A stretch of DNA of 64,000 nucleotides from Betaproteobacteria bacterium (GCA_019449455.1 JAGRPO010000088.1:459-64458); one strand, 5' to 3'. Shown: positions 7,682-49,475, counted from the first letter of the stretch. Notes: generated by a model not told the origin, from the sequence alone. Program-made: numbers and translations.

Positions 7682-8257
7682 ATGAAATCGGCACTGGTTG
7701 TCTACGGCACGACGGAAGGCCAGACCCGCAAGATCGCGGAGTTCATCGCGAACGCATTGAAGGCGGGCGGCGTGAAAGTAGACCTCGTGGACAGCGCCGA
7801 CGAGCGCGCAGCCCTGGTCCAGCCGACCTACTCGGCCGCCATCGTATGCGGCTCCGTCCACCAGCTCCGCTACCAGGCTTCGCTGCTGCATTTCGTGAAG
7901 GACAACGCGGCGTGGCTCGCCGGGATTCCGGCCGCGTTCGTCGGCGTCAGCCTGACGGCGGCGCTGGAGGACGATGAGAGTCGGAGGGAACTGGAGGGGC
8001 TCGCGGAAGCGTTCTTCCGTGAAACCGGCTGGACGCCGGCGATCACTCGCCACGTGGCCGGTGCGCTGCGGTACACGCAATACGACTACTTCAAGCGGTT
8101 GGTCATGAAGCTGATCGCGAGGCACCAGGGCGGCGACACGGACACGTCGCGCGACCACGAGTACACCGACTGGGATGACCTGACCCGCTTTGTCGACGAG
8201 TTCCTGGCCGCCACTTCCCTGCGGGAGAGCGGTCACGGCGATCTGCGGCGATCCTGA
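7682..8257 (+). CDS. hemG: HemG-type long-chain flavodoxin (menaquinone-dependent protoporphyrinogen oxidase family)
   Basis: Internal ATG at 7682. MKSALVVYGTTEGQTRKIAEFIA...GALRYTQYDYFKRLVMKLIARHQGGDTDT...YTDWDDL aligns by eye with E. coli HemG, including the HemG-specific loop. Confidence 0.7.
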   Translation: MKSALVVYGTTEGQTRKIAEFIANALKAGGVKVDLVDSADERAALVQPTYSAAIVCGSVHQLRYQASLLHFVKDNAAWLAGIPAAFVGVSLTAALEDDESRRELEGLAEAFFRETGWTPAITRHVAGALRYTQYDYFKRLVMKLIARHQGGDTDTSRDHEYTDWDDLTRFVDEFLAATSLRESGHGDLRRS

Positions 8258-34916: not shown

Positions 34917-35651
34917 TCAGGCGAGGTGAAGCCCGCCGTCGAGGCCCAGGGTCTCGCCGGTCATGAATCCCGCCAGCGGGGAGACGAGAAAGCGCACGGC
35001 GTGCGCGAATTCCTCGGGCTCGCCGAAGCGTCCCGCCGGAAGCGCGGCGAGCACCTGGCGCCGCTGCGCCTCGGTGAGGTGGTCGGTCGCGGAGGGCGAG
35101 CGCATGAAGGTCGGGGCGATGGCGTTGACGGTGACGCCGCGGGAGGCGACCTCGCGGGCCAGCGCCTCGGTGAGCGAAGCCACGGCGCCCGAGGCTGCCG
35201 CGTCCGCGGTCCCGCGCGGGGCCGCGCTCGCGCGATGCCCGCCCACGTTCACGATGCGGCCCCAGCCGCGCGTCGTCATTTCGGGAAGCACCGCGCGCGA
35301 CCACAGGAAGGTGCCGTCGAGGCGCGCGCCGAGGACGCGGCGCCAGGCGGTCATGTCCGTGGCGGCGATCGCCGAGTCGGTGGAGGCGCCAGCCGCGTTC
35401 ACGAGGATGTCCACCGGCCCCAGGTCGGCGCGCACGCGCTCGTGCGCGGCGCGAACGGCCTGGGTGTCCGTGACGTCGGCCGCGACGACGATGCGCTCGC
35501 CGCGCAGGAATCTCGACAGCGTGTCCAGGCGCAGCGCGTCGAGGTCCACGAGCGCCACGCGGGCGCCATCCTCGAGGAGGGCGCGCACGGCCGCCAGCCC
35601 GAGGGCGCCGGCTCCGCCGGTCACCACCGCCACCTTGCCCCGGATCGTCAT
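34917..35651 (-). CDS. Short-chain dehydrogenase/reductase (FabG-like)
   Basis: ORF 34917..35651. VAVVTGGAGALG (TGxxxGxG), NAAG, and a predicted catalytic Ser/Tyr/Lys region. Confidence 0.88.
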   Translation of the reverse strand: MTIRGKVAVVTGGAGALGLAAVRALLEDGARVALVDLDALRLDTLSRFLRGERIVVAADVTDTQAVRAAHERVRADLGPVDILVNAAGASTDSAIAATDMTAWRRVLGARLDGTFLWSRAVLPEMTTRGWGRIVNVGGHRASAAPRGTADAAASGAVASLTEALAREVASRGVTVNAIAPTFMRSPSATDHLTEAQRRQVLAALPAGRFGEPEEFAHAVRFLVSPLAGFMTGETLGLDGGLHLA

Positions 35652-35667
35652 GGTCGCTTCTTCTCCT

Positions 35668-36348
35668 TCATCGCCCCGCCGGGCGCCACGGCGCGAGGAG
35701 TTCCGCCAGGCCGTCCCAGCAGATCTGCACGCCGATGCACAGCAGGATGAACGCCGAAAGCCGCAGGAAGACCGCCGTCCCCGATGCGCCCAGGAGCCGC
35801 ACGAGGTGCGAGGCGTAGCGATAGGCGAGCCAGATGGCCACCGAGGCGATCCAGATCCCGATGAGCAGCCCCGCCGACGTGGTGAACAGGGGCACGCCCC
35901 GCTTGGGCAGGCTCGCGCCCAGCGTGATGGCGATCGAAATGGAGCCCGGGCCCACCGTGATGGGGAACGAGAGGGGATAGAAGGCGTGCCCGGCGACTTC
36001 GTGCGCCGGCGTGAGCCGGGTGGAACCCGGCGCGTCGCTGCCCGCGCCGCCCTCGGCGGCGAGCAGTCGCCAGGCCGTGGCCGCCACGAGCAGCCCGCCG
36101 CCCACGCGCACCACCGGAAGCGAGATGTCGAAGAAAGCCAGCACGTGCGTGCCGACGAACGCCGCGGCCACGAGGAGCACGAGGCAGTTGAGGCCGACTC
36201 TGCGCGCCATGCCCCGTCGCGCGTCCTCGGCCATGCCGCCCGTGAGCGCGAGGAAGATCGGCGCGTTTCCCGGCGGATTGGTGATGGGAAGCAGCGCGGC
36301 GAGCGTCACCAGCGCGGTCCGGGCGATCGTGGCGAGCTCGGTCTCCAA
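35668..36348 (-). CDS. MarC/UPF0056 family integral membrane protein
   Basis: ORF 35668..36348 with a TTG start codon. LLPITNPPGNAPIFL is the family signature. Confidence 0.78.
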   Translation of the reverse strand: METELATIARTALVTLAALLPITNPPGNAPIFLALTGGMAEDARRGMARRVGLNCLVLLVAAAFVGTHVLAFFDISLPVVRVGGGLLVAATAWRLLAAEGGAGSDAPGSTRLTPAHEVAGHAFYPLSFPITVGPGSISIAITLGASLPKRGVPLFTTSAGLLIGIWIASVAIWLAYRYASHLVRLLGASGTAVFLRLSAFILLCIGVQICWDGLAELLAPWRPAGR

Positions 36349-36357
36349 GGGCGGCCG

Positions 36358-36816
36358 TCAGCTCGTGCAGTCGAGGTAGATCGTGCGGTGCTCGTAGGCG
36401 GACGCGGTCTTCGCGATCGTCCCGCACACGTAGGTCACCTCGAGCTGCTTGCGGTCGCCCGGCGCCGGGTCGCCGCACATCGCGTTGGAGATCTCGAAGG
36501 AGGCGGTGCGCCTGCCGTTCACGCGGCGCGCGACCCAGCGCGTCGCGTCGCAGCTCTTCGCGGAAGTGCCGTAGTACGCGGTGGACACCGTGATCGGGCC
36601 GGTGGGCCGCGGCGGGGCGGGAGCGGCCGCCGGCGGCGGCGGGGGGCGCCGGCCTTCGTCGAGCGCCTTGCGGTATCCCGCGGCGAAGCCGTCGTCGTAG
36701 CCGCGGCGATAGCCGTCGCGGTAGTCGCTGCGGTTCTCCTGCGATTCCTCGCCGTCGATGGCGAAGGCGGGCGTGCCCAGGGCGACGAAAAGGGCCAGGG
36801 CTAGGCAGTGGCGCAT
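36358..36816 (-). CDS. Secreted hypothetical protein
   Basis: ATG at 36816 within ORF 36358..37707. It has a signal peptide MRHCLALALFVALGTPAFA, a Pro-rich linker, and a Cys-containing C-terminal domain. It overlaps the upstream gene by 16 nt. Confidence 0.55.
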   Translation of the reverse strand: MRHCLALALFVALGTPAFAIDGEESQENRSDYRDGYRRGYDDGFAAGYRKALDEGRRPPPPPAAAPAPPRPTGPITVSTAYYGTSAKSCDATRWVARRVNGRRTASFEISNAMCGDPAPGDRKQLEVTYVCGTIAKTASAYEHRTIYLDCTS

Positions 36817-37628
36817 GGGGTGTTCTCCAGGACGGGGGAAGGGCGGCCTGTCGCCTTGCGGCTGCGGCATGCGGCGAGGAAGGCGTCGAGCAGGGGCTTG
36901 CCGTCGAGCAGCTCGGCGTCGGACGGATTCATGAACTCGGGATGCCACTGCACGCCCGCCACGAAGCTCGGCCCGGCCCAGCGCACGGCCTCGACGACGC
37001 CGTCGGGCTCGCTCAACGCCTCGATGACGAGGTCGCGGCCGAGCGTCTTCACGGCCTGGTGGTGGATGGTGTTGATTCGCGCGAGCCCCGTGCGCGGGTA
37101 CAGGCGGGAGAGCCAGCCCCCCTCGACCACGCGCATGGCATGGAAGTTGTCCTCGTAGCGCCGGTCGCACCGGTGCAGGACGGATTCGCCCACCTGGGTG
37201 GCGATGTCCTGGTAGAGCGTGCCCCCGAAGGCGACGTTGATGAGCTGGCTGCCCCGGCAGATGCCGAAGACGGGCTTGCCCTGGCGCACGAATTCCTCGA
37301 AGAGCCTGATCTCGTAGCGGTCGCGGACGCGGTCGCCGGACCACTCCGGGTTGAGCGGCGCCTCGCCGTAGGTTTCCGGGGCGATGTCGGCGCCGCCCTG
37401 CAGCACCAGGCCGTCGAGCGCGTCCACGTAGTCCTTCTTCGAGATCCTGGACGGATGGTGCGGGGAGGCGATGCTCAGCGCCGGGACCATGAAGGCGAGC
37501 ACCTGGCCCGACATCACCCAGCTCGCCACCGATTGCTCGAGGTACTGGACGCTCTTCGTGGGCATGAAGAAGCGGCGGGGATCGGGATAGAGCAGCCGCG
37601 CCGATATTCCGATTTTCAGCGGTTCCAT
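36801..37628 (-). CDS. Class I glutamine amidotransferase / peptidase C26 (PuuD-like gamma-glutamyl hydrolase)
   Basis: ORF 36801..37628. GKPVFGICRGSQLINVAFGG (nucleophile Cys) and GVQWHPEF (catalytic His). Confidence 0.85.
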   Translation of the reverse strand: MEPLKIGISARLLYPDPRRFFMPTKSVQYLEQSVASWVMSGQVLAFMVPALSIASPHHPSRISKKDYVDALDGLVLQGGADIAPETYGEAPLNPEWSGDRVRDRYEIRLFEEFVRQGKPVFGICRGSQLINVAFGGTLYQDIATQVGESVLHRCDRRYEDNFHAMRVVEGGWLSRLYPRTGLARINTIHHQAVKTLGRDLVIEALSEPDGVVEAVRWAGPSFVAGVQWHPEFMNPSDAELLDGKPLLDAFLAACRSRKATGRPSPVLENTPCATA

Positions 37629-37776
37629 CTTCGTATTCCTCCCTCTTCCTCGGGGAGAGGGGCGCCGTAACTATATCCCGTCGCCGCCATCCCCGCCGCG
37701 CGCCCACCTGTTGACCTATGACAGGAACGCCTCGCGCAGCCCGGCTACATTGGGAGCGTAACCTCCTGTTTTCGCC

Positions 37777-39714
37777 ATGGAAAAGTCACGCATTGTCGAG
37801 GCACTGGGCGAAGAAGGGCTGCGCCTGCCCGCACTCCTGAACGACGCGCTCGCGGCGAACGACCGCGCCAAGTACCTCTTCACCGTGCTCCAGGTCGCGC
37901 GGGGCCATGCGGACCACCCCGGAGGGCCCGCGCCGGAACTGCGCGCCGAGCGCGAGGCCGCCGGCCTGACTGCCGCCGGCTTCGACGAGGTTGCCGCGCT
38001 GGCGACCAGGGTCGGCGAGGACCGCTATTTCATGCCCGGGGTCGAGCGGCTGTGCGCGCGCCTGCACGCGGAAGTCGACGCGATGCTCGCGCCGCTCCAG
38101 GCATCGGGAGACGAGGCCGACGGGTTCGACGGGCGGCGCGCGCGGCTGGCCGCGCAGCCGTGGTGCGGCGAGGACGACCAGATCAGCGCGGAACAGATCG
38201 CCTCGCTCACCGCGGGCGGCCGGGAAGGCGCCGACACCGTCCACCGGCTCGTGATGGACATGCACAAGGCCCTGAACGGGCTGCAGGCGCGCATCGCGTC
38301 GGAGGCGATCGATGGCGCCCACGCCTACGGGATGGCGCAGGGGGACCGGGCGCTCGTGGCGGCGTTCATGCGGGGCGTGAACCGCACCGCTGCCCTGAAG
38401 CTCGACCACCCCGGCCTCGGCACGACCGCCACGCGGTCGGGCGCGAAGCTGGTGATCCAGAACGACATCGGGACGACCGAGGCGCACGTCCTCGTGGTGC
38501 ACGTCGAGGGCGGCCGCGTGACCCTCACGTACACCGACGTTCACATGCAGCGGCTCCTTTTCTTCCAGAGCCTCTTCGATGCGTGGCGCGTGGACTGGCA
38601 GGACACCCTCTCGCGCACCGACCGCACGATGGAGGACGGCGTCTACCACCTCTGCATCGGCTCCTACGCGGCCGCGGGCGCGGCCGAGCTGGAGGAGTAC
38701 CTCGCGTTCCTCGGCTCCCGCCTCGTCTTCCTCATCGACTGGAACCGCGCCCGCAAGCGCCTGCGACTGCTGCTGCCGAAGAAGGACCTGATGGATCTCC
38801 TCAAGTGGACGGCCGACAACGACCACGGGCACATGGCCTTCCTGCGCGCGGGCGGGGAGCAGATGATCTTCGACTCCCTCGCTTTCGTGTCGCGCGCGCC
38901 CGCCTCCTTCGGCGCCCGGCTGGACGACGTGCTGGGGCGCGCGGCGGCGGTGAACTTCATGCGCTACGTGATGCGGACCTGCGCGCAGGGCCTGATCGGC
39001 GGCCGCCCGGAGGGCCTCATCCGCGACGAGGTCCGCGCCGAGCTGGTGAGCTACTTCCGCTCGGCGCAGGAGAGCGTTCTCGACGTCGCGGCCGAGCACG
39101 CCGCGTTCGCCCTCGAGATCGCCTCCGGCATACGCGACGCGCTGGTGAACGCCGGCACGCCCTCGGCGGGCGAGGCGATCGCCCGCAACGCGCAGCGCGC
39201 GAAGGCGTGGGAGCACCGCGCCGACGATCTCGTCAACGCGGCGCGCGCGCAGGCGAGGCATTCGGAGCGCGCGCAGTCCTACCGCGACCTGATCGAGGTG
39301 GCCGACGACATCGTGGACGAGCTCGAGGAGGCCGCGTTCCACCTCGCGCTCGTGCCCCGCGACGCCGACGGCGATTCGCTGTGCGCGGCGCTGCGTCCCC
39401 TGGCCGCGCTCGCGGTCGAGAGCGTCCAGGAGTATCTCAAGGCGGTGGAGACCGCGCGCACGCTGCACCGCGGCAGCCCCCGGGAGGACACGCAGGATTT
39501 CCTCGAGGCCATCCACCGGATCATGACGCTGGAGCGGCGAAGCGACGAGATCCATCGCGCGGCCAAGACCCTGGTTCCGTCCCGGTCCGGAAGCTACGGC
39601 GCCCTCTTCGGCTTCATCGAGTGCGCGGGAAATCTCGAGGCGGCGATCGACGCGCTGATGCACACCGCGCTGCACCTGCGCGACGCGGTGCTGGGCGAGC
39701 TGGTGGTGCAGTGA
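37777..39714 (+). CDS. 645-aa protein: unknown N-terminal region of about 430 aa + DUF47/PhoU-like helical C-terminal domain
   Basis: ORF 37777..39714. The C-terminus has WEHRADDLVNAAR...YRDLIEVADDIVDELEEAAFHL and IMTLERRSDEIHRAAKTL (two E..aD.i repeats as in DUF47/PhoU). Confidence 0.65.
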   Translation: MEKSRIVEALGEEGLRLPALLNDALAANDRAKYLFTVLQVARGHADHPGGPAPELRAEREAAGLTAAGFDEVAALATRVGEDRYFMPGVERLCARLHAEVDAMLAPLQASGDEADGFDGRRARLAAQPWCGEDDQISAEQIASLTAGGREGADTVHRLVMDMHKALNGLQARIASEAIDGAHAYGMAQGDRALVAAFMRGVNRTAALKLDHPGLGTTATRSGAKLVIQNDIGTTEAHVLVVHVEGGRVTLTYTDVHMQRLLFFQSLFDAWRVDWQDTLSRTDRTMEDGVYHLCIGSYAAAGAAELEEYLAFLGSRLVFLIDWNRARKRLRLLLPKKDLMDLLKWTADNDHGHMAFLRAGGEQMIFDSLAFVSRAPASFGARLDDVLGRAAAVNFMRYVMRTCAQGLIGGRPEGLIRDEVRAELVSYFRSAQESVLDVAAEHAAFALEIASGIRDALVNAGTPSAGEAIARNAQRAKAWEHRADDLVNAARAQARHSERAQSYRDLIEVADDIVDELEEAAFHLALVPRDADGDSLCAALRPLAALAVESVQEYLKAVETARTLHRGSPREDTQDFLEAIHRIMTLERRSDEIHRAAKTLVPSRSGSYGALFGFIECAGNLEAAIDALMHTALHLRDAVLGELVVQ

Positions 39715-41336
39715 GCACGGTCGACGGCGCCTGCCCGGTCTTCGGGATCGGCATCGCGAAAGCCGGCACGGGAACGGGTGGCCTCGACCAGATGGGCTCG
39801 AAGGCCTTCAACCTGCAACGCATGGTGGCCGCCGGGCTTCCGGTGCCGCAGGCCTACGTGCTGGGAACCGGGTGGTGCGGGATGCACCAGCGCGATCCCG
39901 GCGCAACGCGGCAGGCGCTTCACGACGCGCTGGGCGAGTGGACGCGCCGCCTCGAGCAGGCCTGCGGGCTCGCCTTCGGCGGCGAGAGGAGGCCGCTCCT
40001 CGTCTCGGTGCGCTCGGGAGCGCCGGCGTCGATGCCGGGGATGATGGACACCGTGCTCAACGTCGGGCTGTGCGACCGCGCCGTGCGGGGCCTGCTGCGC
40101 CTCTCCGGCAACCCGCGACTCGCATGGGACTCGTACCGGCGACTCGTGCAGCAGTATGCCCAGGTCGTGCACGGCGCCAGGGGCGGCGCGTTCGACGAGA
40201 TCGCCGCCGCCGCCGTGGCGCAGGCGGGCGCGCAGGGCGTCCGCGAGCTCGACTTCGAGAGCCTCGCCAGGCTCGCCGCCGACAGCCTCGACCTGTTCGC
40301 CGACATCACCGGGGCGCCCTTCCCGCAGGACCCGCGCGAGCAGCTCGAGGCCGCGACGGTTGCGGTGCTCGACTCGTGGCGCTCGGCGCGCGCCACGGAA
40401 TACCGCCGCCTGCACGGCATCGCCGACGCCATGGGGACGGCGGTGACGGTGCAGCGCATGGTCTTCGGCAACGCCGGCGGAACCTCGGGCTCCGGCGTGG
40501 GGTTCACGCGCGATCCGGCCACCGGCGAAAACCGCCTCTACCTCGATTTCCTCTTCAACGCGCAGGGCGAGGACGTGGTGTCCGGGCGCCACGCCGTCAC
40601 CGACACGGCCCGGCTGCCCATGGCGCTGCCCGAAGTCGCCCAGCGACTCGAGGAATTGCGCCACGCACTCGAGTCCACGTTCGGCGACGCGCAGGAGTTC
40701 GAGTTCACCGTGCAGGACGGGCGGCTCTACCTGCTGCAGACGCGCACCGCCAAGCGCACGCCGTGGGCGGCGCTGCGGATCGCGGTGGAGCAGGTGCGCG
40801 AGGGCATCGCCACGCCCGCCCAGGCGCTCGCGCGCCTCGAAGGCATCGACCTCGCGGCCATCGAGCGCCGCCGCGTGGCCGACGAAGGCGAGGCGGCGCT
40901 CGCCAGCGCCGTGCCGGCGAGCATCGGCCTCGCGGTGGGGGCGATCGCGCTCGACACGAAGACCTGCGTGCGGCTCGCCGGCGAGGGCCGTCCGGCCATC
41001 CTGGTGCGCAACGACACGAGCACGGAGGACATCGCCGGCATCGCCGCCGCGAGCGGCGTCCTCACGGCGCGCGGCGGCCGGACCTCGCACGCGGCCGTCG
41101 TCGCGCGCCACATGGGAAAGGTCTGCCTCGTGGGCTGCGCCACGCTGCGGATCGACGAGAAGGCGCGCACGATCACCTTCGGCGGGGCGACGCGGCGCGA
41201 GGGCGAGACCATCTGCCTCGATGCGGAGAACGGGCGGGTCCTCGACGGCGAGCCCGAGGTGGTCGTCGAGCGCCCCGAGGGACTGCTCTCGGAGGTGGCG
41301 CGCTGGCGGGCCGGCTCGCCGTCAGTCCCGGCGTGA
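39711..41336 (+). CDS. Truncated pyruvate,phosphate dikinase-like protein (ATP-grasp nucleotide domain + swivel phospho-His domain; no PEP/pyruvate TIM barrel)
   Basis: GTG at 39711 overlaps the upstream stop (GTGA), in frame with ORF 38052..41336. LLVSVRSGAPASMPGMMDTVLNVGL, FPQDPREQL, GTAVTVQRMVFGN, NAQGEDVVSG, LYLLQTRTAKRT, TARGGRTSHAAVVARHMGK (His codon 41088-41090). The protein ends about 80 aa after the His. Confidence 0.85.
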   Translation: MSTVDGACPVFGIGIAKAGTGTGGLDQMGSKAFNLQRMVAAGLPVPQAYVLGTGWCGMHQRDPGATRQALHDALGEWTRRLEQACGLAFGGERRPLLVSVRSGAPASMPGMMDTVLNVGLCDRAVRGLLRLSGNPRLAWDSYRRLVQQYAQVVHGARGGAFDEIAAAAVAQAGAQGVRELDFESLARLAADSLDLFADITGAPFPQDPREQLEAATVAVLDSWRSARATEYRRLHGIADAMGTAVTVQRMVFGNAGGTSGSGVGFTRDPATGENRLYLDFLFNAQGEDVVSGRHAVTDTARLPMALPEVAQRLEELRHALESTFGDAQEFEFTVQDGRLYLLQTRTAKRTPWAALRIAVEQVREGIATPAQALARLEGIDLAAIERRRVADEGEAALASAVPASIGLAVGAIALDTKTCVRLAGEGRPAILVRNDTSTEDIAGIAAASGVLTARGGRTSHAAVVARHMGKVCLVGCATLRIDEKARTITFGGATRREGETICLDAENGRVLDGEPEVVVERPEGLLSEVARWRAGSPSVPA

Positions 41337-41364: not shown

Positions 41365-44127
41365 TCAGTCCCAGGCCGGGGACAGGCACTTCGAGGTCCG
41401 GCGTGCCAGCACCGCCTGGAAATTCCGGACCGAGTCGCGCATGACCGGGGAGCGGCCGTCGTGGCAGGTGAGGCAGGCGCCCACGCGCAGGATCCGGCGC
41501 TGCTCCTCGACCGCGAAGGGCCGGGCGTCGTCGCGCGTCGAGACCATGCCGTCGCGCGCCCCGAGAAACGCAATCCATGCGTCGGCTGGAAGGCCATCGG
41601 CGGGCAGGCGGGGCGAGGAGGGCGTGAAGCGCCAGCGGCCCCCGGAGGGCGTCGGCCCGTAGCGCAGGTCGCCGCGGCCGTATCCGATCGCCACGGGATC
41701 GTTGTGGCAGGATTCGCAGGAGCGCGCCTCGCGCCGCGTGGTGTGCGGCTCGATGGGCGCGTAGAGCCTGCGGAACACCGTGCCCGCCGGGCGCCCGGGC
41801 TGTGCCGGCCGGTCGACGGTCAGGATCATGCCGGGCACGAACGTTTCGACCATGTCCCGGCCCGCACCGCCAGGCGATTGGCGACGCGCGACGCCGAGGG
41901 TCGGAAGGTCCGCGACGAACGGCCCGGACTTCTCGACCCATTCGCCGCGGACCTCGGCGCCGTCGATCCAGTCCCAGGCCGTTCCCGCCGCGTCGAACGA
42001 CGTGTGGCACGTGGAGCAACGCGGAGCCCATGCGGAGTGACAACTGCCGCACGAGAGACGCGCGTGTCCCCGGCCCTCCACGCAGACGCGGGCCGTGGGC
42101 TTGAGCGCGAGCCGTTCGCCGGTGCGCTTGCGCACCATGGCGGGCCGCCCCTCGGGATCGATCACGACGTTGACCAGCGCGTCGCCCTTCGCTGTCCGTC
42201 CGTGGCGGCTTGCGGCGGGCCCGGGCCAGGCGCGGATCGCAAGGATGCGCCGCGACTCGGGGTCGAGGGCGGACGAAGGCAACGTGGGCAGGCTCGCGCC
42301 CGCCGGCGCATGGCAGTCCGCGCAGGCGACCCTGAGCTGCCCGCTCTTGGTCGCGTGCGCCACGCCGTCTCCCATGACCTCGGCCGACGTGTGGCAGTCG
42401 ATGCAGTCGAGGCCGCGCTGGTGGTGGATGTCGGGGGTCACGCGCTCGAACACGCGGTCGCCCTCGACGACCCGATATCCCGCCGACAGCGGCCGCGCCG
42501 GGTCCGCCGCCTGCGCGGGCGGCTCGTTCATCTCGTGCCAGCCCTCGTAGCTCGTCGCGATGCGGCCGGATCGGCTGTGGCAACCGAAGCACTGGCCGTT
42601 TCCGATGTCGAGCGAGAGAGCCGGGTGCACCGTCGGCGCATCGGGCGTTCCGCCTTCCTTCTGGCGCTGGTAGCGGCGCAGCGCTTCGAGCGCCGCCGGG
42701 CCGTAGACGAGGTGGCAGGCATTGCAGCCGCCGCCCCTCGTGCCCTCGTCGTTCGGGCCGAGCGTCTCCTTCGCCGCGCCGAGATGGCACAACGCGCAAA
42801 GCTGGCGCAGGTGCGTGTCCGCCGCCGATCGGCCGAGCTGGCGGACATGGACGGGGGCGCGCGCGTCCCCGGGGGCCTCCTCCCCGAAGACCTTCCGGTC
42901 GACTCGCACGATCCCGCTCATGGTGGCCATGACCGACCGCTCGACCCTCGCGACGACGGATGCATGGCACGAGCTCTGGCCGCATCGGCCCTGTGCGGTC
43001 GCCATGTTGCCCGGTATCACGTCCATGCCGGCGTGCGCCCTTGCCTTGTCGAGAGTCAGCCCATCGCCGCCGTGGCACGACATGCAGCCGATGGCTTCCG
43101 GCCGGTGCGAATTGCCCAGGCCCGTGACGCCGCGATGGCACGCGAGGCACCCCTCGGGCCGGCCCATCGCGACGGGAAGCGGCACGGGCACTTCCGGCGT
43201 TGCCGCGAAGACGAAACCGGCGCGCGGATTGCCGGCCCCGGCCGGCCACCCCGGCGAGAACGCCCAGTTCTCTCCGCGCGCGAACGCCCCGACCGCGCAC
43301 AGGCCCGCATAGATCACCGCGACGGCGAGCAACGCGACCTTCGTCCCCGCCGCCCGGGCCGGCCGGATCTCGCGCACGGCGTAGAGGGCGCCCACGGCGA
43401 CGACCCCGCCCAGCACGACCGCGAGCGGCCACGCGGTCCAGTGCAGGATCTCCTGCAAGCCGAGGAAATACCACGGCCCCTTGAGAACGGGATCCCGACC
43501 GTCGTGCAGGCCCGGCGACAGGAAGAGCGAAAGGACGCCGGTGCACAGCGTGACGGCCACGAGCGCCGCCGTGCGCGGCCATACCCGTCGCGCGTGCTCG
43601 ATGACGAACAGCCAGACGACGATCGTCGCCGTCGCGGCATGCTGCACGTAGATCAACTCGAGCCGCTCGGCCGCTCCGAACAACAGCGTCGCCAGCAGCG
43701 GGCCGAGGAGCGGCACCTGGGTCGTCGCTTCGGTCACGATGCGAAGCGCCTGGCGGGCGTCCGCATCGCCGCGGAGCAGGAACCCCGACAGCATGATGAA
43801 GGCGAGGAGCGGCAGGGTCAGCGCGAGGCGAAGCCAGATGCCGCGGGGCACGCGCCGCTCGACCGGCGCCCGCAGGCGGTCCCACACGTGCGCGAGGGTG
43901 AGCAACAGGCATGCCTGGGCGGCCAAGTAGTGCAGGTTGCGGTAAAAGACCGCCGCGGGATTTGCCAGGAGCATGGCGGCGATGGACCCGTACCCGTCGG
44001 CCGGGTCGTAGGGCACCGCGACCGCCACGCCCGACACGGCCGCGATGACGAAGGCCGCGGTGGCGAGATCGCCGAGGGTGCCCCACCGCGACATGACGAT
44101 GGAGGACGCCTGGCTACGAGGAGGCAC
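41365..44127 (-). CDS. Fusion protein: cytochrome b6/subunit IV-like membrane domain + multihaem (about 12 sites) cytochrome c
   Basis: ORF 41365..44127 (GTG start; alternative ATG at 44094). Cyt b: NLHYL-(13)-AHVW, VQHAAT-(14)-EHARR, GPWYFLGLQEILH. There are eleven CxxCH motifs (CLACH, CMSCH, CALCH, CNACH, CFGCH, CIDCH, CADCH, CGSCH, CSTCH, CESCH, CLTCH) plus one CGQSSCH. Confidence 0.85.
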   Translation of the reverse strand: MPPRSQASSIVMSRWGTLGDLATAAFVIAAVSGVAVAVPYDPADGYGSIAAMLLANPAAVFYRNLHYLAAQACLLLTLAHVWDRLRAPVERRVPRGIWLRLALTLPLLAFIMLSGFLLRGDADARQALRIVTEATTQVPLLGPLLATLLFGAAERLELIYVQHAATATIVVWLFVIEHARRVWPRTAALVAVTLCTGVLSLFLSPGLHDGRDPVLKGPWYFLGLQEILHWTAWPLAVVLGGVVAVGALYAVREIRPARAAGTKVALLAVAVIYAGLCAVGAFARGENWAFSPGWPAGAGNPRAGFVFAATPEVPVPLPVAMGRPEGCLACHRGVTGLGNSHRPEAIGCMSCHGGDGLTLDKARAHAGMDVIPGNMATAQGRCGQSSCHASVVARVERSVMATMSGIVRVDRKVFGEEAPGDARAPVHVRQLGRSAADTHLRQLCALCHLGAAKETLGPNDEGTRGGGCNACHLVYGPAALEALRRYQRQKEGGTPDAPTVHPALSLDIGNGQCFGCHSRSGRIATSYEGWHEMNEPPAQAADPARPLSAGYRVVEGDRVFERVTPDIHHQRGLDCIDCHTSAEVMGDGVAHATKSGQLRVACADCHAPAGASLPTLPSSALDPESRRILAIRAWPGPAASRHGRTAKGDALVNVVIDPEGRPAMVRKRTGERLALKPTARVCVEGRGHARLSCGSCHSAWAPRCSTCHTSFDAAGTAWDWIDGAEVRGEWVEKSGPFVADLPTLGVARRQSPGGAGRDMVETFVPGMILTVDRPAQPGRPAGTVFRRLYAPIEPHTTRREARSCESCHNDPVAIGYGRGDLRYGPTPSGGRWRFTPSSPRLPADGLPADAWIAFLGARDGMVSTRDDARPFAVEEQRRILRVGACLTCHDGRSPVMRDSVRNFQAVLARRTSKCLSPAWD

Positions 44128-47571: not shown

Positions 47572-49278
47572 CTACTTGGACCCGGGGGCCAGGTCGCCCT
47601 TCGAGAAGGCGCCCGTCGTTTCGCCCGCCACCGAGCCCGAGCGCAGGCGGCTCTTGCGCAGCTGCCCAGCCTGCTCGAGGATGGGGTAGGCGGTCGAGCA
47701 GAAGAACGAGTTGATGCGGCGCATGTCGCTGATGATGTCCAGGTGCAGCGAGCTGGTCTCGATGGACTGCACGGACTGGTCGGACAGGCGGTCGAGGTGC
47801 TGGGCCGCGTAGGAGCGCTCGAGGTCGCGGAACTTCTCCTTCTCCGCGAGCAGCATCTGGGCGGTCTTCACGTCGCCGGTGAGGAAGACCGAAAGCCCCA
47901 GGCGCAGGTTCGCGACGAGCTTGGCGTGCAGGTCGCAGAGCTCCTTCATCCCGGCATCCGAGAACGAGAGCTTGTGGGCGATCTTCTTGTCCTTGATGTC
48001 CTGGAGGATGCGCTCGATCACGTCGCCCACGTGCTCCAGGTTGATCGTGAGCGAGATGATCTCGGCCCAGCGGCGGCCGTCCTTCTCGTCGAGCGCCTCG
48101 CGGCTGATCTGCGTGAGGTAGAGCTTCACCGCGGTGTAGAGGCGGTCCACGTCGTCGTCCAGGCGGATGAGCTCCTCGACGCGCTTGTCGTCGTTGGTGC
48201 GCAGCACCTCGATCAGGCCGTTGAGCATCTGCTCGATGGTGTCGCCGATGCGAAGCGTCTCGCGCGCGGCGTTGGCGAGCGCCAGGGTCGGGGTCTCCAG
48301 CGCCAGGCTGTCCAGGTGGCGCGGCTCGGCCACCTGCACGCCGCCGGCGCCGCTCGCCACCGGGAACCACTTCTCGACGAGGCGCGCGATGGCGTCGGTG
48401 AGGAAGATGAAGCCCAGCGCGAGCGCCACGTTGAAGGCCACGTGGAAGTGAAGCACCTGCCGGCGCGGGTCCGGGTCCAGCTGCGCGATGCCCTGCATGA
48501 CCAGCGGCAGCGCCAGGGAGAAGACGACGCAGCCGGCGAGCTTGAAGGAGAGATTGCCCAGCGCCACGCGCCGCCCGGCCCCGGGCGTGCCCAGGGTCGC
48601 CACCAGCCCGATGAGGCCGCTGCCAAGGTTGGCGCCCAGCACCAGGCACATCGCCACCGGGACGGAGATCACGTGCGCGGCCGCGAGGGTGGCCGTGAGC
48701 AGCACCACCGCGAGGCTCGACCACGAGAACACGGTGAAGACGGCCCCGATCAGCATGTCGAGCATCGGGTCGCCGGAAAGGGAGCCGAAGAGCACCTTGG
48801 TGCCCGCGGAGGCGACGATGGGCCGGGTCGCCTCCTGGGTGAGCTGCAGCGCGAGGATGATGAGGCCCAGCCCGATGGACACCCGGCCCAGCTGCCCGGC
48901 CCTGGTGTTCTTGCGCGACAGGAAGAAGATCACCCCGAAGAAGATCGCGAGCGGCGAGAGCCATGACAGGTCGAGCGAGAACACCTGCGCCATGAGCGCG
49001 GTGCCCACGTCGGCGCCCAGCATGATGGCGAGCGCGGGGGCGAGCGCGATGAGGTTCTGGGAGACGAAGGAGCTGGTGATGAGCGCCGTGGCGCTCGACG
49101 ACTGCACGAGGCCGGTGACGCCCAGCCCCGCCATGAAGGCCGATCCGCGATTCGTGACGCTCTTCGACAGGACGCGGCGCAGGCTCGCGCCGTAGACGCG
49201 CAGGATCCCCGTGCGGACGATGTGCGTGCCCCACACGAGGAGCGCCACGCTGGCGAAAAGGTTGAGGAGCGTCTGCAC
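47572..49278 (-). CDS. Na/Pi cotransporter family protein with a C-terminal PhoU-like domain (YjbB/NptA-like)
   Basis: GTG at 49278 within ORF 47572..49458. VQTLLNLFASVALLVWGTHIVRTGILRVYGASLRRVL aligns with the E. coli YjbB N-terminus. QSSSAT repeat motif. Confidence 0.85.
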   Translation of the reverse strand: MQTLLNLFASVALLVWGTHIVRTGILRVYGASLRRVLSKSVTNRGSAFMAGLGVTGLVQSSSATALITSSFVSQNLIALAPALAIMLGADVGTALMAQVFSLDLSWLSPLAIFFGVIFFLSRKNTRAGQLGRVSIGLGLIILALQLTQEATRPIVASAGTKVLFGSLSGDPMLDMLIGAVFTVFSWSSLAVVLLTATLAAAHVISVPVAMCLVLGANLGSGLIGLVATLGTPGAGRRVALGNLSFKLAGCVVFSLALPLVMQGIAQLDPDPRRQVLHFHVAFNVALALGFIFLTDAIARLVEKWFPVASGAGGVQVAEPRHLDSLALETPTLALANAARETLRIGDTIEQMLNGLIEVLRTNDDKRVEELIRLDDDVDRLYTAVKLYLTQISREALDEKDGRRWAEIISLTINLEHVGDVIERILQDIKDKKIAHKLSFSDAGMKELCDLHAKLVANLRLGLSVFLTGDVKTAQMLLAEKEKFRDLERSYAAQHLDRLSDQSVQSIETSSLHLDIISDMRRINSFFCSTAYPILEQAGQLRKSRLRSGSVAGETTGAFSKGDLAPGSK

Positions 49279-49475
49279 TGCGGTCGATCGAGACTCCCGC
49301 GGCACTCGTGCCGCCGGGGGAAAGGTCACCTCGCTTTGGCTGGCCGCAAGGGGCCCGCAAGCGGCGATTATGACAGTTTCGTGTCGGGCGCGGCGCGAGC
49401 GGATGGCCGCGCCGGCGCGAGGGCGACGATAATGGGCGGCGCCCCGCGTCCGGGGCACTTTCGAAGGGAGACGGC

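Follow-up and report, generated by a model that had tools for sequence, protein, structure and literature searches.

A barrel-less pyruvate, phosphate dikinase coupled to a PhoU-tailed partner: a candidate two-part phosphohistidine transfer system linked to phosphate genes

What can a pyruvate, phosphate dikinase (PPDK) do when its pyruvate barrel is missing? The question is raised by two genes in a 64,000-nucleotide stretch of DNA from a Betaproteobacteria bacterium (GCA_019449455.1, JAGRPO010000088.1:459-64458), which we will call the window. Gene A (37777-39714, + strand, ATG start) encodes a 645-residue protein made of a new N-terminal region and a PhoU_div/DUF47 tail, and gene B (39711-41336, +, GTG start) encodes a 541-residue barrel-less PPDK, with the stop of A and the start of B overlapping as GTGA (39711-39714, +) in an arrangement of translational coupling. 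The original prediction for this locus, made from the sequence alone, had placed both open reading frames (ORFs) and their overlap exactly to the base. Its description of B as the ATP-grasp and swivel domains of PPDK, with the catalytic histidine codon at 41088-41090 and an end before the barrel, is borne out by profile matches and the alignment to PPDK, and its description of A as an uncharacterised N-terminal region followed by a PhoU/DUF47-like bundle agrees with a Pfam match above threshold and with the superposition of models. We propose that A and B are a two-part phosphohistidine transfer machine for the homeostasis of inorganic phosphate (Pi), pyrophosphate (PPi) and polyphosphate, in which A is a new acceptor or regulatory module; we put the probability of this at roughly 55%. 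Three things are added to the original prediction: a statistically supported link to the Pho regulon and polyphosphate genes, a candidate site of His and Asp residues in A, and the placing of VadK as the nearest relative of B that has been studied.

In Pfam B matches PPDK_N (1e-35) and the mobile domain of the PEP-utilizers family (3.5e-20), with no match to PF02896, the phosphoenolpyruvate (PEP)/pyruvate TIM barrel. The PPDK profile TIGR01828 is covered at positions 16-512 of 865 and the score (522.6 bits) stays under the curated cut-off of 843.45 bits, while the alignment to the 874-residue PPDK of Clostridium symbiosum (EC 2.7.9.1; PDB 1KBL and 1DIK) spans its residues 17-527 (E 5e-118), the C-terminus of B being the linker that precedes the barrel there. 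According to this alignment K22, R92, the SMPGMMDT loop, R135, E323, Q335 and R337 of the C. symbiosum enzyme are kept and D321 is replaced by glutamate; these, D321 included, are known as elements of the ATP/Pi site. The ATP-grasp nucleotide/Pi-binding domain (39786-40745, +; B residues ~26-345, from the PPDK alignment and motif positions) is followed by the phosphohistidine swivel domain (40894-41237, +; residues ~395-509), where PF00391 matches at 428-508 and PDB entry 2fm4, which is the His domain in isolation, aligns to 396-514. The GGxTSHAAV-type phosphohistidine motif is present as GGRTSHAAVVAR (residues 455-466) and contains the predicted catalytic His460 (codon CAC, 41088-41090, +), which aligns to His455 of C. 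symbiosum PPDK with the adjacent threonine kept as well. B is thus predicted to be catalytically intact for the first partial reactions of PPDK and to lack only the barrel, and since it aligns with the first 527 PPDK residues with the active residues kept, a swivelling-domain mechanism is expected. Among NCBIfam models PPDK is matched at 1.6e-156 and PEP synthase, rifampicin phosphotransferase and PigC/RedH far more weakly; because B is closest to PPDK among the dikinase types, it would use Pi as a co-substrate in the same way. The best 120 homologues of B are nearly all ~530-575 residues long, none of them of full-length PPDK size, and they carry the database labels 'pyruvate, phosphate dikinase' or 'PEP/pyruvate-binding domain-containing protein'. 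The first of these labels would place a false reaction in metabolic models.

The literature found that bears on B consists of papers on VadK (Rv1127c), a truncated PPDK from Mycobacterium tuberculosis in which the equivalent histidine is autophosphorylated in an ATP- and Mg2+-dependent manner (Pascoe et al., EMBO Rep 2026, PMC13400623). VadK shows interaction with methylcitrate-cycle enzymes, 2 M NaCl is needed to part it from its operon partner Rv1126c, and it is described from actinomycetes only, Proteobacteria not being mentioned (PMC13400623). Like VadK, B consists of ATP-grasp and phosphohistidine swivel domains without a barrel, with the catalytic histidine in the same motif, and both are encoded with an operon partner, although tight binding is a feature of VadK and the A-B association is known from the genes. 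VadK is not a pyruvate enzyme, which is also how we read B. However, B scores 422.1 bits against NF004531/PRK05878, under the 456-bit cut-off; its partner lies upstream, has 645 residues and combines a new domain with DUF47, while Rv1126c is encoded beside VadK; and where VadK is tied to the methylcitrate cycle, A and B are associated with genes for phosphate and polyphosphate. Because B falls below the cut-off and both the partner and the neighbourhood differ, we treat it as VadK-like in the first step and not as the same equivalog. Rifampicin phosphotransferase, glucan water dikinase, phenylphosphate synthase and PigC/RedH also combine an ATP-grasp domain with a swivelling phosphohistidine and serve a non-pyruvate acceptor on a different domain or subunit, but B matches these enzymes at only 1e-8 to 1e-14 and the A module is dissimilar to theirs. 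We found no paper that combines PPDK with DUF47 or describes the pair, including among papers naming DUF47 as a whole word.

What stands in place of the barrel then? The pairing of the two genes points to A. The loci compared came from reference genomes (20), four contigs of a Rhodocyclaceae relative and a metagenome scan (80), and a locus was counted as informative when at least 300 nt of sequence followed A. B lies directly after A in all 20 reference-genome loci, in the four Rhodocyclaceae contigs and altogether in 94 of the 97 informative loci, down to 34% identity of A; because the pair recurs so regularly, the pairing is far beyond chance. Two of the exceptions have too little sequence past A, and in one of them (L030, with A 34% identical) a PPDK-like gene begins with a 4-nt overlap. 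The only informative locus in which A is followed by another gene, that of a glycerophosphodiester phosphodiesterase (GDPD), is L080 (8001-11243), which has a Pho-box-like site (11/14) before A. Between the stop codon of A and the nearest start of B the overlap is 4 nt in 32 loci and 8 nt in six, and most of the remaining loci have gaps of up to 13 nt. The two proteins also exist as natural fusions of ~1200 residues, P0131 and P0135, in which A is followed by a ~35-residue linker and then B; with no more than 48% identity between the two over 1199 residues, sequencing artefacts can be dismissed. A search with P0135 returned at least 120 further fused proteins (clusters at 90% identity) of 1109-1241 residues, many from Solirubrobacteraceae, and in all fusions B is joined to A and never to a barrel. 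This 'Rosetta stone' evidence, together with the conserved coupling, strongly argues that A and B act together 1:1.

One alternative explanation would be that of an ordinary PPDK or PEP synthase that is split, with the barrel encoded elsewhere and A as an accessory; split dikinases do exist, phenylphosphate synthase being an example. The original prediction had likewise considered a separate barrel gene; none was found downstream of B, in the window or in the related loci. This comes from a scan with three barrel motifs (G.GL.R[TS]E, G[TS]NDL.Q and CGE..DP) that were run with no positive control: none occurs in the six frames of the 64-kb window, and 1.1 Mb around 111 related loci gave a single, chance-like match. 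The scan reached only the window and the related loci, which leaves this explanation some room. Against it, PEP-utilizers_C is not among the recurrent neighbour families in the neighbourhood tallies, the fusions join B to A and never to a barrel, and M. tuberculosis encodes no such barrel domain according to the authors of the VadK study (PMC13400623). We therefore regard a split PPDK as very unlikely, and the proposal of the original prediction that the pair is a two-component ATP-dependent phosphotransferase gains support from the pairing, the coupling, the fusions and the lack of a detectable barrel in the window and related loci. It is scarcely credible that B is a decaying remnant of PPDK that happens to lie next to A. 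B is indeed truncated in comparison to PPDK, and one other genome carries a degraded second copy of the pair, but decay is refuted by thousands of homologues of constant length, intact catalytic residues, conserved pairing and coupling, and the fusions. The degraded copy (L023, 6001-8154), with A in frame-shifted pieces and B in fragments, shares a Ca. Methylophosphatis contig (JADJEV010000001.1) with the intact copy L014 and looks like a pseudogenised paralogue.

Gene A belongs to a large family, with more than 4000 clusters of homologues at 90% identity (~646 residues) and 1240 clusters at 50%. Its only Pfam match is PhoU_div/DUF47 (PF01865, residues 473-600, 27.1 bits against a cut-off of 24.4); no NCBIfam model and no entry in a PDB sequence search was matched. 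An AlphaFold2 (AF2) model built on 51 homologues has a mean predicted confidence (pLDDT) of 87.7. In the tail (residues 411-645; 39007-39711, +) it shows six long helices (412-643) with conserved E479, D483, D514, E517, D590 and R594, and Foldseek superposes this bundle on 3l39 (E 2.4e-4, TM 0.73), on 2iiu and 2olt (TM 0.73-0.76 for these three) and on PhoU 4q25. The tail is thus like the DUF47/PhoU_div structures 3L39, 2OLT and 2IIU and like PhoU (4Q25, 1T72) in its six-helix bundle (TM 0.7-0.76 on the target) and its acidic motifs. DUF47 proteins are stand-alone, ~210 residues long and typically encoded beside a Pit transporter, whereas in A the bundle makes up the C-terminal third of 645 residues, in a protein that is coupled to a kinase; no pit gene adjoins the pair in the window.

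The N-terminal region of A (residues 1-410; 37777-39006, +), modelled separately with a pLDDT of 85, consists of helices around a beta-sheet core with strands at 215-221, 224-230, 238-244, 247-254, 278-281 and 289-298. It has no Pfam match even at E<=10, no match in a PDB profile search and none in BFVD, and Foldseek against the PDB gave nothing significant, the best hits being a 76-residue ACT-like piece (E 0.056) and YbjN/AmyR-like folds (~0.2). Over 87 diverse full-length family members the strongest conservation is found here and not in the tail: R120, H211, G213, G232, H237, D254, H256, R259, W274, D321, W322, N323 and R326 are conserved in at least 97% of members, and H156, D161, H163, N229, D230, K327 and H352 in 90-97%. 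Many of these residues fall into the polar cluster DHPGLG...QNDIGTT(D/E)AHV...TYTDVH (38404-38544, +; H211, N229, D230, H237, D254, H256, R259), in which position 235 is glutamate in the window and aspartate in most relatives, and into the invariant basic segment IDWNRARKRLR (38734-38766, +; D321, W322, N323, R326, K327). Secondary structure assigned to the model by DSSP puts H211-G215, N229-G232, 235-237 and D254-H256 together along one edge of an antiparallel meander of four strands. Read from this topology, not from coordinates, the polar cluster may form one site, a candidate for metal or phosphate binding or for phosphoryl transfer. In locus L027 (around 7900-8020) a homologue of A carries an insertion of ~39 residues that follows the VVHV strand within the conserved region of the beta-sheet, and so this loop tolerates large insertions.

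The physiological context comes from the neighbouring genes. Dereplication of the loci at 80% identity of A left 55 clusters, and 242 flanking ORFs were scanned against Pfam in two sets, with a crude calling of flanking genes that includes some spurious ORFs. OmpR-type regulators and histidine kinases are the most frequent in the first set, with Ppx-GppA, PhoR and PhoU found twice each and CBS three times; in the second PPK2 is the commonest family with four members from four clusters. For a family present in 1-3 copies per genome one would roughly expect well below one match per 100 random genes. The neighbours of the pair are enriched in PPK2, Ppx, PhoR/PhoU, CHAD, PhoX and Pst genes, with PsiE and GDPD also recorded, and a phosphate or polyphosphate gene lies within four genes of the pair in ~12 of 55 clusters. 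The Rhodocyclaceae relative has the order phoX-A-B-(EAL-GGDEF-CBS) with phoR, phoB, phoU and pstB close by, another genome has pstCA, pstS, phoRB, psiE, A-B, GGDEF-EAL and ppx in this order, and PPK2 adjoins one of the A-B fusions. In the clade of the window (L010, L013, L016, L020, L028) a gene combining a Na/Pi cotransporter with PhoU is kept 4.5-6 kb downstream of the pair. In the window itself it lies 6 kb away at 47572-49458 (-) and encodes 628 residues with two PhoU domains. The PPK2 neighbours at L047 (9950-11422) and L085 (5720-7300, -) are two-domain proteins of 491 and 527 residues, which we take to be the size of polyphosphate:AMP phosphotransferases, enzymes that would recycle the AMP released by a dikinase. 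In the actinobacterial locus L114 (9690-11476) the fusion is followed by a 98-residue ORF and a 497-residue CHAD protein with overlapping stops and starts, and a gene with HD_4, a RelA/SpoT-type hydrolase, lies upstream of the fusion.

Scored against forward CTGTCAT-N4-CTGTCAT (out of 14) in the 120 nt before A, Pho-box-like sites of at least 11/14 are found in 13 of 54 lineages (24%), compared to 6 of 202 control regions taken from in front of neighbouring genes (3%; Fisher p = 4.5e-6), and all 13 sites are 39-72 nt from the start codon of A. The upstream block ACCTGTTGACCTATGACAGGAAC of the window (37706-37728, +) occupies the position of the Pho-box-like 7+4+7 repeat of relatives and is degenerate in the window; it recurs in L008, L009, L020 and L028, and the relatives score 11-13/14.

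How could such a pair work? From this evidence we infer a course of autophosphorylation, docking on A, transfer to an acceptor and a physiological role as follows. A and B would form a 1:1 complex in which the pyruvate barrel of PPDK is replaced by a different module. B would bind ATP and Pi and phosphorylate its own His460, releasing AMP and PPi, as suggested by the intact residues and the VadK precedent. The swivel domain would then carry the phosphoryl group to A, as the fusions, the coupling and the conservation suggest, docking most likely at H211, N229, D230, H237, D254, H256 and R259 on the sheet edge, near DWNRARK, and the group would either stay on A or go on to a small acceptor. Finally, to judge from the family of the tail and the gene neighbourhoods, the PhoU-like bundle would tie the activity to phosphate status, giving the pair a role in Pi, PPi and polyphosphate homeostasis, with the operon probably controlled by PhoB in many lineages. 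A more specific version, which we consider rather unlikely, casts the pair as a Pi dikinase whose third active site has a new fold, and in which the site in A passes the phosphate to Pi, PPi or the end of polyphosphate. The reverse reaction would rebuild ATP out of AMP, PPi and a phospho-donor, and the enzyme would represent a Pho-controlled PPi/polyphosphate route that operates together with PPK2, polyphosphate:AMP phosphotransferase, Ppx and CHAD proteins.

Alternatively, the pair could be a regulatory histidine kinase or phosphorelay of the VadK kind with no small-molecule product, which we consider possible, if on the doubtful side. Phosphorylated B would report the levels of ATP/AMP, Pi and PPi, Pi being included because it is a co-substrate of the autophosphorylation, and would phosphorylate a histidine of A or shift its conformation, while the PhoU-like tail would act on PhoR, on Pst/Pit transporters or on enzymes of cyclic di-GMP (c-di-GMP) metabolism. 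The model for such a scheme is the phosphotransferase system (PTS), in which the same mobile His domain of Enzyme I hands phosphate to a histidine of its partner protein HPr; the donor there is PEP and here would be ATP, B is marginal to the Enzyme I profile TIGR01417 (3.6e-4), and A is unrelated to HPr. Regulation of metabolic enzymes by protein-protein contacts is indeed how VadK works (PMC13400623), and PhoU-family domains are described as regulatory adaptors in part of the literature. Two-component regulators are the commonest neighbours, the fold echoes of the N-terminal region are weak and are ACT-like and YbjN-like, and GGDEF-EAL(-CBS) proteins stand beside the pair in three lineages, in one of them with a 4-nt overlap. 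However, the dense invariant cluster of His, Asp, Asn and Arg resembles a catalytic or metal site more than a single phospho-acceptor, subunits of a single enzyme typically show such strict 1:1 coupling and fusion, and no output partner is consistently encoded nearby. The GGDEF-EAL proteins in question are at L001 (11595-13436), L025 (11303-13981, -) and L017 (3385-5199); those of L001 and L025 contain faint CBS matches, and the one in L001 shares 4 nt with the end of B. They may link the pair to c-di-GMP signalling.

Returning to the transfer machine for phosphate homeostasis, several observations lower our confidence in it. About three quarters of the lineages lack a phosphate gene at a distance of up to four genes from the pair, and the promoter of A in the window itself scores at most 10/14, without a convincing Pho box. 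The N-terminal region has no recognisable catalytic fold, its weak echoes being of regulatory or protein-binding folds, and A is acidic overall (pI 5.45), which disfavours extensive binding of polyphosphate. Finally, within this genome the barrel scan covers the window only.

The A-B system is widespread in bacteria of soil, sediment and wastewater: the A family is found in denitrifying, polyphosphate-accumulating and soil bacteria, with fused forms among the actinobacteria. How bacteria sense Pi in the cytoplasm and what PhoU-like domains do is still unclear, and should A and B act on Pi, PPi or polyphosphate, or serve as a sensor of cytoplasmic Pi, the pair would supply a missing piece of phosphate homeostasis in bacteria. 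It would also represent a new acceptor module for the class of swivelling-histidine enzymes, and VadK may represent one specialised branch of a far broader set of barrel-less PPDKs with dedicated partners.

In the window (GC content ~70%) the pair is flanked by a divergent peptidase C26 gene upstream of A (36801-37628, -) and a convergent cytochrome b-multihaem gene downstream of B (41365-44127, -), and because of this orientation of the flanking genes A and B form a two-gene unit. The peptidase, which is PuuD-like, belongs to flanks resembling putrescine/gamma-glutamyl utilisation in this clade (window 34917-37628, -; L028 1585-6843 and 10548-11930), a set with an aldehyde dehydrogenase, an iron-containing alcohol dehydrogenase, a glutamine-synthetase-like gene and an SDR protein; in L028 the pair is at its centre. 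No prp genes were found near the pair in any tallied locus. An anti-phage defence system was considered and rejected, as PADLOC gave no match and the pair is in stable chromosomal synteny within the clade. The best matches of A and B are from Usitatibacteraceae-like and other betaproteobacterial metagenome bins, and the DNA of the window is present in sequencing runs from freshwater sediment, soil and groundwater. Only one RNA run holds the sequence, with a thin and patchy cover of the contig that is indistinguishable from carry-over of DNA, and two metatranscriptomes of the source study gave no match to it. Simple scans of the region of the pair found neither a sigma-70 consensus promoter nor an intrinsic terminator. 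A -10-like hexamer TACATT is found at 37746-37751 (+), with TAGAGT or TAGATT at the same place in L008, L009 and L020 and no recognisable -35 element, a pattern that would suit an activator-dependent promoter. In L001 (3013-3041, -) three tandem Pho-box half-sites with 11-bp spacing (CCGTCAT CTGG CGGTCAT CAAG ACGTCAT) lie between a metallophosphoesterase gene and the gene of a PilJ-Hpt-HATPase chemosensory kinase.

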